In this document: positions 23,768 to 32,596 of the stretch, in pieces
Layout: each line of letters begins with the position of its first letter
Numbering within the stretch: position 1 is the first letter of the stretch
Origin: a virus
Taxonomy: Duplodnaviria; Caudoviricetes
Length of the DNA stretch: 36,624 nt
IMG/VR virus record: IMGVR_UViG_3300043932_000294
Coordinates: 1 to 36,624 of that record
Reading direction: 5' to 3' (one strand)
The notes under the pieces: model-generated
What the model saw: only the letters and a program-made list of their open reading frames with translations
Told to the model about the DNA's origin: nothing
Database searches by the model: none
Made by a program: the position numbers and the translations under genes

Positions 23768-23780
23768 GGTGCCACCTCCT

Positions 23781-23820
23781 TAAAAATGAGTATAAAAATA
23801 GCAGCCTGATTGAGGCTGCT
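23781..23820 (-). terminator. Terminator-like hairpin plus conserved 20-nt tail at the left edge of the defence cassette
   Basis: AGCAGCCT-caatc-AGGCTGCT then ATTTTTATACTCATTTTTA. Confidence 0.75.
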
Positions 23821-23872
23821 CGAATGAATTAAATAATTTATGGAAGCCTTAAAAATAATATAGGCTTTTATG

Positions 23873-23901
23873 TTGATTATTGAAAAAAATGGTAATATAC
23901 T
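23873..23901 (+). promoter_or_regulatory. SigmaA promoter for the SLATT gene
   Basis: TTGATT-N17-TATACT. Confidence 0.65.
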
Positions 23902-23927
23902 AAAAATATTAATTAAAATATTAAATT

Positions 23928-24383
23928 ATGGTAGTGAATATAATGCAGATTTGTGATTACATACATGATCGTGTTGATGACCAAATTAAATGGTACGATG
24001 AAAAGTCTTTATCATGCCAAAAAAAATACAAAGTAATTCAAATAATAGAAATTGTTTTCGCAGCGTTCATTCCGCTCTTATCTGGTTATACCGCTGTAAA
24101 TTTTATTATTCCGATTATTATTGGTATAATTGGTGCAGTTATAACGATATTAGAATCTTTAACGAAATTGAATAAATATCATGAAAATTGGATTTCATAC
24201 AGAACAACTTGTGAGATGCTTAGATACCATAAAAATTTATTTTTAACACATTCAGGGCCATATTGTACAGAAGAAGAATCTGTGGAAAATTTATTCGTAA
24301 AAAATATGGAGCAAATTATTTCTGTAGAAAATAATCAATGGAAGTCAGTAAATGAAAAAAATGCAAAAGAAAACAAAAAGTGA
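23928..24383 (+). CDS. DUF4231/SLATT-family two-TM protein, putative membrane effector
   Basis: Y..DRVDDQIKWYDEKS, two TM helices, HENWISYRTTCE.L..HK.LF, E..ISVEN..W; alternative start 23943. Confidence 0.85.
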   Translation: MVVNIMQICDYIHDRVDDQIKWYDEKSLSCQKKYKVIQIIEIVFAAFIPLLSGYTAVNFIIPIIIGIIGAVITILESLTKLNKYHENWISYRTTCEMLRYHKNLFLTHSGPYCTEEESVENLFVKNMEQIISVENNQWKSVNEKNAKENKK

Positions 24384-24386
24384 CCC

Positions 24387-24578
24387 TTAGATCTTTTTAT
24401 ATGTTTTTTTAAATATATCCGGTTTACAAGGGTATTGTTCTCCATGAATTCCTGTGATGATCCAATCTCCTGGTTCTGCTATCATGTCTCCTTCTAAAGT
24501 ATGGATAACTAACTTTTCAAAAGTTTGATATGCTTCTACAGTAATAGGCTTTTTTTGAAATTTGTTTGGATGTTGCAT
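24387..24578 (-). CDS. 63-aa PGDYG-like beta protein (KKP..EA / TLEG / PGDW / YPCKPDIF family)
   Basis: RBS GAGGTG; motif set of a widespread small phage protein family, here in minimal form. Confidence 0.85.
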   Translation of the reverse strand: MQHPNKFQKKPITVEAYQTFEKLVIHTLEGDMIAEPGDWIITGIHGEQYPCKPDIFKKTYKKI

Positions 24579-24583
24579 AAAAT
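24555..24583 (+). promoter_or_regulatory. SigmaA promoter for the TIR gene, overlapping the start of the antisense gene
   Basis: TTGAAA-N17-TAAAAT. Confidence 0.55.
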
Positions 24584-24620
24584 CACCTCGTAATTATTAA
24601 TCGTTTTGAAAGGAGTTTAA

Positions 24621-25049
24621 ATGAAAAACTATCATATTTTTATTAGTCATGCATGGAAATATTCTGATGCTTACAATAAAGTTGTATCCTGGCTTAACGA
24701 AGCGCAAGATGAGGGAGAATTTACTTGGAGTAACTATTCGGTTCCGGAGCATGACCCATTAATTGATCCAAATACATCAAGTGGAAAGAGACAATTAAAA
24801 GAAGCATTGAATGGTCAAATTAGTCCGGCATCTCTTGTTATTGTGATTTCTGGAATGTATGTTGCATACAGTGAATGGATTGACTATGAAATCGATACAG
24901 CTGTGTCTTATGGAAAATATATTATTGGCTTAAAGCCTTGGGGACAAGAGCGTATTCCTGAAAAAGTATCTGATAATGCTGATATAATGGTTGGATGGAA
25001 TAAAAAATCTTTAGTTGATGCTATAAAAAATTCGGGGAAAAATTCTTAA
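24621..25049 (+). CDS. ThsB-like (MTH538/DUF1863) TIR-domain protein
   Basis: IFISHAW, NYSVP..DP, VIVISG, catalytic-type SEWIDYEI, GKYIIG, VGWN; RBS AAAGGAG. Confidence 0.9.
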   Translation: MKNYHIFISHAWKYSDAYNKVVSWLNEAQDEGEFTWSNYSVPEHDPLIDPNTSSGKRQLKEALNGQISPASLVIVISGMYVAYSEWIDYEIDTAVSYGKYIIGLKPWGQERIPEKVSDNADIMVGWNKKSLVDAIKNSGKNS

Positions 25050-25077
25050 AATTTTATAAGAAACTGTAGAAGCTTTC

Positions 25078-25114
25078 AAAATAACTGCTGTACAAAATAT
25101 ACAGCAGTTATTTT
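25078..25114. terminator. Bidirectional terminator after the TIR gene
   Basis: Perfect inverted repeat AAAATAACTGCTGTA / TACAGCAGTTATTTT. Confidence 0.8.
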
Positions 25115-25228
25115 AATATCATTACTTATGTCCTTGAAATGAGAATAAGCCTTTCTAACAATCTCTTATATGACACGCAAAATTAGCCTTAATAGACTAA
25201 TATATTACAATATTAAAAAAATAAAAGC

Positions 25229-25258
25229 AAAAAAGCACCACTGTTTCAGCGGTGCTTT
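25229..25258 (-). terminator. Terminator after the methyltransferase
   Basis: AAAGCACC...GGTGCTTT stem with a T-run on the minus strand. Confidence 0.75.
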
Positions 25259-25275
25259 AGGGGGTAGGAAAAAGA

Positions 25276-26010
25276 CTATTTGTCTTGTAATCGGTTTATG
25301 GCTGTTTGGTAATACTGCCGGTCAATTTCCCAGCATACAAAATTTCTTTTGGACTGTTTGCATGCAACCGCCGTTGTTCCGCTGCCGCAGCAGCTGTCGA
25401 GGACAAGTTCGCCCGGGTTTGTGTAAGTCCGAATCAGGTAGTCAAATAGGGCTACCGGCTTTTGAGTCGGATGTAGGCCGCGCTCACACTTGACTTCTAG
25501 GAGCTGGCGTGGATAATGAACAATGCAGGTTTCTGTGTCATGGGAAAGGCTGTTGTCCATACGATAGACGCAGTCTCCATGGGCAGGAACTTTTTTACCA
25601 CTTCTTTTGACTGGTTTGTCTAAAACAATTAGTCCCTGTGGATTGTAAGTGGGGAGGTGCTTGTAAAATACACACACTTCTTCAATACACCGCAGGGGCA
25701 TTTTCTTTGCGTTCGCAAATCCGGTTGGTTGATTTTTGTACCAGTACCAGCAATATCGGAAAAGCTTTGGTTGACTGCTGATTAGCTGCGTCGTGAAAGG
25801 CTGGCATCCGGTTAAACAGATTGCACCGTGATCTTTGATGACTCTGAGGTATTGTTCCCATAACTGATCAAACGGTAAGAGGCTGTCCCAGCGACACCCC
25901 GTGATTCCATACGGGAGATCGGTGAGGATCATGTCTACACTGTGATCGGGCAGCCGGTGCATTCCGGCGATGCAGTCTTCGTTAAAAATATGATTGATAT
26001 AGTTTTCCAT
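25276..26010 (-). CDS. Orphan N4/N6 DNA methyltransferase (beta class)
   Basis: Motif IV DLPY near the N-terminus, HPTQKP, motif I variant DSCCGSGTT. Confidence 0.92.
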   Translation of the reverse strand: MENYINHIFNEDCIAGMHRLPDHSVDMILTDLPYGITGCRWDSLLPFDQLWEQYLRVIKDHGAICLTGCQPFTTQLISSQPKLFRYCWYWYKNQPTGFANAKKMPLRCIEEVCVFYKHLPTYNPQGLIVLDKPVKRSGKKVPAHGDCVYRMDNSLSHDTETCIVHYPRQLLEVKCERGLHPTQKPVALFDYLIRTYTNPGELVLDSCCGSGTTAVACKQSKRNFVCWEIDRQYYQTAINRLQDK

Positions 26011-31903: not shown

Positions 31904-31927
31904 TTAGGTGGGGAGGAGGTGAATGAA

Positions 31928-32596
31928 ATGTCAACATTTGTATGTCCATATTGTGGAGTTACCGTTCCAGAAGATTGGGACACGATAAATACTTTTGAAA
32001 TTAAGGACACGAAAGTGCAAACAGTCAGTCTGTATTCAAGTGATGAGCATTGGAAGGACTGCCTTAAGATTCTTCAAAAAAAATGTCCAGAATGTGGTAA
32101 TTATTTTATTACTGCCAAAGGCACAGGAGGAAAATATGCTAGCGTAGATTGTATTATTTCTCCTAAATCGCTTGCAAAACATTTTCCAAACTATATCCCG
32201 GCGGCAATTCGATCTGATTATGAAGAAGCCTATCTGATTTTGAAGGAGAGCCCAAAGGCATCTGCAACTTTGTCAAGAAGATGCCTGCAAGGCATGATTC
32301 ACGACTTTTGGAATATTCATGGGAAGAACCTTAACACTGAAATTTCACAGTTACATACTTGCGTGTCTCCTACTATGTGGAAAGCAATTGATGGTTTGCG
32401 TAAGCTTGGGAATATCGGTGCGCATATGGAAATCGAGGCCGACAAGGTCATCGATATAGAGCCAGATGAAGCAGAAAAACTTCTGAAGCTTATTGAGCTG
32501 CTCATTGAAAAGTGGTATATAAGCAGGCATGATGAAGAAAAATTGTATTCCGATATTGTGGAAATTAATGAAGAAAAGGTTTTGCAGAAGAAATGA
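31928..32596 (+). CDS. DUF4145 (HEPN-like) protein with N-terminal zinc ribbon
   Basis: CPYC/CPEC; DYEEA..SPKASATLSRRCLQ; LRKLGNIGAH; opposite strand to the early operon. Confidence 0.85.
   Translation: MSTFVCPYCGVTVPEDWDTINTFEIKDTKVQTVSLYSSDEHWKDCLKILQKKCPECGNYFITAKGTGGKYASVDCIISPKSLAKHFPNYIPAAIRSDYEEAYLILKESPKASATLSRRCLQGMIHDFWNIHGKNLNTEISQLHTCVSPTMWKAIDGLRKLGNIGAHMEIEADKVIDIEPDEAEKLLKLIELLIEKWYISRHDEEKLYSDIVEINEEKVLQKK

Follow-up and report, generated by a model that had tools for sequence, protein, structure and literature searches.

The small minus-strand gene at positions 24387–24578 of the window (the whole 36,624-nucleotide viral stretch that was analyzed) probably encodes the cognate self-immunity sponge of the defence cassette in which it is embedded, most plausibly for canonical cADPR. 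For the PGDYG/PHROG_419 family to which its product belongs, the prospects are evenly balanced that it is a large new family of nucleotide-signal sponges and the first for canonical cADPR, acting in anti-defence where the gene stands alone and as a self-immunity off-switch where it is nested antisense in the Thoeris cassettes of temperate phages themselves. Sponges are small phage-encoded proteins, often of less than 100 amino acids, which assemble into homo-oligomers with a positively charged pocket between the protomers, bind the signal in stoichiometric amounts and let it go unaltered; with 63 amino acids and occurrence in 716 phage records, the small protein agreed with this size and source. 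The evidence for a sponge comprised the antisense three-gene layout, the orientation on the lytic strand, the promoter consensus sites fixed in position, the fusions to known sponges and the complementary loss of motifs in tandem proteins.

The antisense orientation, on which the initial annotation was silent, is the key feature of the small gene. It was located between a SLATT gene and a ThsB-type TIR gene, both on the plus strand, and was tail-to-tail with the former (gap of 3 nt) and head-to-head with the latter (42 nt apart). The gene is a real open reading frame on the minus strand, with a ribosome-binding site, GAGGTG, at 24584–24589 (minus strand), 5 nt upstream of the ATG; similar purine-rich sites were found upstream of its homologues. 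The 63-residue reading frame and the motifs quoted in the initial annotation were all recovered in the translation of 24387–24578, and the label "PGDYG-like" was borne out by the PHROG_419 profile (E = 3.6e-24) and the full PF14083 PGDYG model (19.3 bits). The latter score was below the cut-off of 27 bits because the Pfam model reaches across portions of two tandem units. The small protein corresponds to one unit of the PGDYG repeat, and tandem proteins exceeded the cut-off, with 51 bits for a tandem cassette homologue. PF14083/PHROG_419 is a clear homologue, a family without an assigned function, and a "PGDYG protein" in BFVD also resembled the small protein (TM 0.93). PF14083 was the sole match in the Pfam scan at E ≤ 0.1, with none to PF11195, PF24729, PF13876 or PF21825 (the Tad2, Tad1/Acb2, Acb4 and Sequestin models), and the PADLOC and NCBIfam scans returned no match. 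The protein had also been described as basic, which did not hold: it contains nine K/R and eight D/E (pI 7.9). This near-neutral net charge counts against a sponge, the pockets of which are positive. In the alignment of 91 homologues, K9, A16, T27, E29, G30, D38, G43, G46, E47, Y49, P50, K52, F56 and Y60 were invariant, and the lysines K6, K9, K10 and K52 were conserved.

The SLATT gene (23928–24383, plus strand) encodes a ThsH-like SLATT_1/DUF4231 membrane effector (NF033634, 127 bits against a cut-off of 41; PF14015, 85 bits). The TIR gene (24621–25049, plus strand) encodes a ThsB-type signal synthase (PF08937, 58.8 bits; PADLOC ThsB), and the alignment revealed an invariant E90 in WxxxE, which is presumed catalytic from its family. 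A ThsB TIR with the conserved Glu adjoining a SLATT effector is the gene content of type VII Thoeris, which consists of the ThsB TIR and the ThsH SLATT and uses the canonical cADPR signal (Yirmiya et al., 10.64898/2025.12.03.692087). By its sequence, the cassette is type VII Thoeris-like, in a prophage. Type VII Thoeris was proposed as two-gene operons, however, and no mention of an antisense third gene was found in the accessible part of that paper (10.64898/2025.12.03.692087), from the text of which the word "prophage" was absent.

The GC contents of the SLATT, small and TIR genes were 0.281, 0.312 and 0.340, respectively, and those of the flanking MTase and terminase genes were 0.47–0.49. 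Contigs in two of four runs skipped all three genes en bloc, with joints from 23798 to 25251 in run X13 and from 23802 to 25251 and 23800 to 25306 in run X3, intervening DNA being possible. Hence, the low GC and the block-wise skipping indicated that the three genes form one accessory cassette (23799–25250), which is missing or replaced in sister phages. Both the low GC shared by the small gene with TIR and SLATT and its travelling with the cassette had been noted at the outset and were upheld. The 36.6 kb viral record carried repressor-like and serine-integrase-like genes on the plus strand and the replication, packaging, structural and lysis genes on the minus strand, with gene names taken partly from PHROG matches and partly from reading of the translations. 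The cassette, outside the repressor operon, was flanked by the MTase/late-regulator region on one side and by the terminase genes on the other. Its slot (23780–23800 and 25250–25310) resembled a variable hotspot, where contigs left into other sequences. Elsewhere in the window, a second defence module may occupy the left end (1–2912), where a low-GC plus-strand gene pair encoded an AAA_21 ATPase of 460 aa and a 318-aa protein that matched no Pfam model; a DUF4145 gene was located at 31919–32596 on the plus strand in the immunity region.

The small gene tracks SLATT, not TIR. Loci found by the window's SLATT alone carried it antisense in 10/10 cases, and those found by the window's TIR alone in 15/17, one miss being a contig-end cut. 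Among the profile-anchored loci, the gene was present in 76/80 SLATT loci (best 80 of 171) and 76/80 TIR loci (best 80 of 185), for which the profiles were built almost wholly from cassette members and were thus biased to the window's clade. The four SLATT loci without it, among the best 80 of 171, were three contig-end cuts and L202; L161, counted as a SLATT match, carried the small gene in two pieces and had no TIR. The linkage was assigned to SLATT because the four TIR loci without the small gene carried an 8xMP effector (L240), a caspase (L265) or no SLATT (L232 and L119). At L240 (2992–3917) and L265 (2992–4396), the same TIR clade was paired with the 8xMP membrane protein or the caspase (type IV-like), and the antisense gene was absent. 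When the SLATT proteins of all loci, including those found via the small gene, were clustered at 70% identity, 33/34 clusters had the small gene. Three gene orders were observed, with the small gene (PG) always antisense: SLATT> <PG TIR>, TIR> SLATT> <PG and SLATT> TIR> <PG. In INPHARED, all 34 phage records with this SLATT had the antisense small gene, and these redundant records represented roughly ten lineages of Staphylococcus, Streptococcus, Enterococcus and Clostridioides phages and satellites. Together with the 76/80 SLATT-anchored loci, this demonstrated the enrichment beside TIR/SLATT genes on which the initial annotation had itself staked its proposal. Streptococcal satellite phages (MK448394.1, MK448456.1 and related records) also had SLATT and the antisense small gene.

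Genome surveys agreed with this linkage in Bacillota. In 401 sampled Bacilli genomes, three close SLATT matches (one in the centre genome) were all accompanied by TIR and the small gene, and three weaker matches by neither. In 401 Bacillota genomes, DUF4231 exceeded the cut-off in five, of which three (one being the centre genome) had the small gene, G166 had a broken cassette without it, and the other was unrelated. The exceptions to the linkage were the damaged cassettes of L202 and G166, which lacked the small gene, and L161 and G247, which had SLATT and the small gene without a TIR match nearby. G247 (L292:809–1719), one of the three Bacillota genomes with the small gene, carried it beside SLATT as an antisense tandem duplication; no TIR was present within 1.5 kb, and the locus did not appear to belong to a prophage. 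Outside Bacillota, the small gene occurred within 1.5 kb of SLATT_1 in 0/60 loci (Bacteroidota and Actinomycetota, irrespective of prophage status), and none of eight Bacteroidota/Actinomycetota SLATT_1 loci with a TIR match (three of them weak) had it. In the Bacteroidota locus L317 (G806), SLATT was followed by two TIR genes, one near the window's TIR clade, and by no small gene, forming a natural two-component control. The small gene itself mostly stood alone: 716 INPHARED phage records carried it and 34 carried this SLATT, and SLATT was present in 24/107 of the loci found via the small gene.

The near-universal linkage within the clade would also be expected of a positive component, i.e. 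a sensor or adaptor required for defence. This role is extremely improbable, as the small gene was always antisense, was absent beside the close SLATT–TIR pair of L317, and was carried by 716 phage records of which just 34 had this SLATT. The initial annotation had proposed a sponge or sensor binding the TIR product. The sensor part was undermined by the antisense position and by the SLATT–TIR pairs without the small gene, and the sponge part was strengthened by the SLATT–TIR enrichment, the fusions to four known sponge families and the dimer-pocket signature. Moreover, the likely ligand, canonical cADPR, by analogy with type VII Thoeris, was absent from the list of ligands proposed at that time.

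The strand of the flanking genes was examined against PHROGs for 89 ORFs (88 of 118 listed and one more), with short ORFs and loci without the small gene mostly left out. Integrase flanks were on the SLATT/TIR strand in 26/27 loci, the exception being L060, where the integrase shared the strand of the small gene, and endolysin, terminase or late-regulator flanks were on the strand of the small gene in 8/8, the window likewise. The small gene points in the lytic direction. In Staphylococcus phage X2, the order was repressor >, PH-domain >, SLATT >, TIR >, < small gene, integrase >; the small gene was thus antisense between the repressor-led genes and the integrase, i.e. in the lysogeny module, and phiCDKH01 had a similar layout with the small gene in the middle. 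Local read-through out of adjacent lytic genes did not hold up in general: the closest flank was on the defence strand in 41/54 cases upstream and 39/56 downstream, since the lysogeny module houses most of the cassettes. Copies without a recognized phage flank were L003, L004, L005, L026 and G247.

This layout has precedents. In the prophage Tha defence, the antisense gene ith, which has its own constitutive promoter and lies in the lysogeny module (ith-1 in that of 80alpha), inhibits the defence on induction (Rostol et al., PMC11087260), and Tai/ati shows a similar antisense layout in the late operon (PMC11364771). As in Tha/ith (PMC11087260) and Tai/ati (PMC11364771), a prophage defence gene was accompanied here by a candidate cognate inhibitor on the opposite strand, and as for ith (PMC11087260), the small gene had its own promoter, here a consensus match. 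The non-contiguous operon of the ith type, an antisense gene within or abutting a defence operon with its own predicted promoter, was therefore found in the cassette. The differences are that the effectors of Tha/ith and Tai/ati are an HEPN RNase or a tail-assembly blocker, whereas the present cassette is one of nucleotide signalling, and that, unlike ith and ati, the candidate inhibitor comes from a huge family whose members also serve as stand-alone genes. The term "TIR" was absent from the texts of PMC11087260 and PMC11364771.

A predicted sigmaA-type promoter of its own often accompanied the small gene, and the TIR stop codon was the most frequent position of this promoter. In the window, an antisense consensus match (TTGAAA-17-TAAAAT; 25051–25079, minus strand) was located at the TIR stop codon and directed through TIR towards the small gene; the predicted mRNA of the small gene would therefore be antisense to the entire TIR gene. 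The survey covered 45 representative SLATT> <PG TIR> loci, with the score and threshold set after the sequences had been inspected. A site of this type on the small gene's strand, between -30 and +70 of the TIR stop, was found in 23/45 loci against 2.1 expected from shuffles, and the control zones gave 0/45 on the sense strand, 1/45 in mid-TIR and 3/45 further out. The -10 ended -7 to +18 nt from the TIR stop in 22 of the 23 loci with the site, and these 22 spanned 15/32 TIR clusters at 80% identity and 6/17 at 70%. Where the gap between the small gene and TIR was short, the match was distal in 21/29 loci, and where it was long, an extended -10 occurred in the gap instead (8/16, 0.8 expected). 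The window-wide promoter count was at chance (11 against 9.2 ± 3.1), so that the sites were informative only through their conserved position.

Other predicted signals framed the cassette. A perfect 15-bp inverted repeat (25078–25114), likely a TIR terminator and insulator, abutted the antisense -35, and a hairpin with z ≤ -2 was found in this zone in 20/45 loci. Further terminator-like hairpins on the minus strand were predicted at 25232–25258, which would end the upstream phage MTase transcript, and at 23800–23820, which would end the antisense transcript beyond SLATT. One or more SLATT promoters were predicted at 23873–23907 (plus strand) from consensus matches only. A possible sense promoter of TIR (24555–24583, plus strand) overlapped the start of the small gene and was not conserved, and a conserved sense promoter for TIR was unsupported in the 45 loci (6/45, 2.4 expected).

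According to the proposed mechanism, sense transcription in the lysogen, usually from the repressor operon, would yield SLATT and TIR and damp the opposing promoter. On induction, the balance would tip and the antisense promoter would prevail, its transcript running through TIR and opposing TIR transcription. The small protein made from this transcript would form dimers sequestering the TIR signal, SLATT would not be activated, and the defence would be off while the prophage induces. Copies standing alone in other phages would act as ordinary anti-defence genes that target type VII/VIII Thoeris of the host. The signal made by the window's TIR would be cADPR by extension from other SLATT systems; in these, type VII Thoeris was not cancelled by Tad1 or MoTad2 (10.64898/2025.12.03.692087). 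Two findings count against an induction switch: the predicted promoter was of the constitutive type, and the window's cassette, outside the repressor operon, was equipped with a predicted SLATT promoter of its own and, towards the MTase, with a predicted terminator. The consensus sigmaA promoter, this SLATT promoter and the copies without a recognized phage flank would rather suit a buffer or antitoxin made constitutively in the lysogen, which soaks up basal signal, sets the firing threshold and is lost when an invading phage shuts off the host. Such a buffer, not tied to induction, is nonetheless quite unlikely, since the lytic-strand orientation was strict, the eight Bacteroidota/Actinomycetota SLATT–TIR loci lacked the small gene, and other type VII systems made cADPR strictly in response to phage (10.64898/2025.12.03.692087).

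If the cognate-sponge reading is correct, a function would be assigned to a very common uncharacterized phage family (24,967 clusters at 50% identity with E ≤ 0.001; 716 INPHARED records), and a counter-defence would be available to the cADPR-based type VII/VIII Thoeris that Tad1 and MoTad2 failed to block. Antisense self-immunity would reach a second-messenger system, beyond protein-inhibited effectors, and a conserved antisense gene in a prophage defence cassette would be worth searching for as an inhibitor of that system. The three-gene cassette is present in cultured phages. Moreover, the protein would be a genetically encoded binder of cADPR. This molecule is a signal in animals too.

The AlphaFold2 monomer (pLDDT 91.4) was confidently modelled as a small beta domain followed by a C-terminal helix, and a natural tandem from a SLATT locus was predicted with a pLDDT of 91.6 and a pTM of 0.72; the terminal segments became strands in the tandem model, unlike in the monomer model. 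The best fold matches were weak and to Tudor-like domains (monomer, Z 3.4, rmsd 2.1, 42 aligned; tandem, Z 4.1, rmsd 2.2, 47 aligned). The PDB fold search gave no clear match and no sponge entry among the matches listed, the PDB sequence search gave no homologue, ESM Atlas gave unnamed or PGDYG clusters only, and the viral structure matches were uncharacterized proteins. Single-unit proteins kept TxE (T27/E29) and K52 in 337/342 cases, a set selected by query similarity and hence biased, whereas two-unit proteins kept TxE in only one unit in 28/29. Where K52 survived once in two-unit proteins, it was in the opposite unit to TxE in 12 and in the same unit in 1 (nominal p = 0.003, the sequences not being independent). 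Four proteins had four or five detected units, and this split was followed by two of them, mixed in one and contradicted by one; TxE and K52 were kept in the same unit in P0242 and in the second pair of P0243. The complementary motif loss in tandems suggests a pocket formed by two protomers at a dimer interface, and the small protein is predicted to be a homodimer.

The median identity across 31 cassettes was 65% for the small protein, 37% for SLATT and 41% for TIR, and that between cassette and stand-alone copies of the small protein was 62%. This higher conservation would be easier to reconcile with an unchanging small ligand than with a protein partner that drifts. A tree of the small proteins (83 columns, quick method) was poorly resolved, with ten changes, and was compatible with one origin; the cassette copies were interspersed with the stand-alone ones. 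An inhibitor acting by direct contact, blocking SLATT (Tad8-like) or TIR (Tad3-7-like) in the way that Ith and Ati act on their partners, might explain the tracking of SLATT across differing TIR clades, the small gene beside SLATT without a TIR match nearby (L276/G247, L004, L026 and L161) and the small beta-barrel with weak SH3/Tudor-like matches (Z ≤ 4.1). It is, however, unlikely: the small protein was far more conserved than either partner, its covariation with SLATT was little (rho 0.19), its cassette and stand-alone copies were intermixed, and its relatives were fused to small-molecule sponges. A passenger role, in which the antisense RNA alone matters or the gene hitch-hikes, would be natural for so common a phage gene but is very unlikely, since the gene was retained and strongly conserved across several host genera and in spite of three rearrangements.

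Sponges are a known class. Seven families are described in the accessible part of a review, i.e. Tad1, Tad2, Acb2, Acb4, Sequestin, Lockin and TadIV-1 (PMC13712596). Like these phage sponges (PMC13712596; 10.1101/2025.07.12.664507), the PGDYG proteins are small, phage-borne and fused to other sponges, with a predicted inter-protomer pocket; unlike them, the cassette copy would bind canonical cADPR and is embedded in its own defence cassette, for which no example was found in that part of the review (PMC13712596). No sequence or fold match of the small protein to phage sponges was found in the Pfam models or the PDB. The layout has precedents in ith and ati, and the PGDYG family matches no sponge Pfam model and has no solved homologue. 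The family was not found in the accessible parts of an editorial (PMC13728456), the TadIV-1 and TerI papers, Hadary et al. and the RyDEP preprint (PMC13232231). No description of the three-gene cassette was found in the full-text literature, in which subscription journals are thinly covered; the literature matches to "PGDYG" were unrelated by title, and "PHROG_419" and "PF14083" were not found among the matches listed.

Fusions connected the family to known sponges. The fusion of Tad2 to a PGDYG unit was found in 4/4 tested loci, and nine of 120 longer homologues carried known sponge domains (six Tad2, two Sequestin and one Acb2/Tad1); the sponge domains and the PGDYG unit occupied separate residues. 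Sponge–sponge fusions are documented, and the same fusion logic led to Sequestin (Tal et al., 10.1101/2025.07.12.664507, PMC12265669). In the accessible tables of Tal et al. (PMC12265669), the YPCKP motif was present in 10 of 3,244 Sequestin rows and 4 of 907 Lockin rows, the inspected rows (two of each) all being fusions, and the family motifs were absent from the accessible candidate-screen table. The small share of motif rows in the two tables counts against a sponge, as do the huge size of the family and its promiscuous fusion: among the 30 longer homologues for which a partner could be named, it was a non-sponge one in 21 (DUF551, 6; WDGH, 3; DUF4406, 2; dUTPase, 2; CN-hydrolase, 2; six singles). 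A small enzyme that degrades the TIR signal instead of holding it (Acb5/RyDEP-like) is rather improbable. The invariant E29, D38, E47, K52, Y49 and Y60, the PGDYG units fused to DHH phosphoesterases and the presence of both hydrolases and sponges in the RyDEP family (PMC13232231) would be consistent with it, but the protein has 63 residues and no known catalytic motif, and the documented pattern is that of sponge–sponge fusions.

DHH/DHHA1 phosphoesterases with a C-terminal tandem PGDYG pair (L296:472–2010, L299:1210–2718 and L300:1195–2718, in G152, G335 and G341) were located among housekeeping-type genes and may be nucleotide-regulated phosphodiesterases. Proteins of 600–3,700 aa (P0241, P0242, P0243, P0246 and P0257) contained up to 30 matched PGDYG stretches, and P0241 additionally matched Annexin and Zeta/AAA_33. 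Furthermore, stand-alone copies adjoined or were fused to DUF6275, Tad2 or an Acb2/Tad1-like gene (L001, L029, L044 and L019), and DUF6275 may itself be anti-defence.
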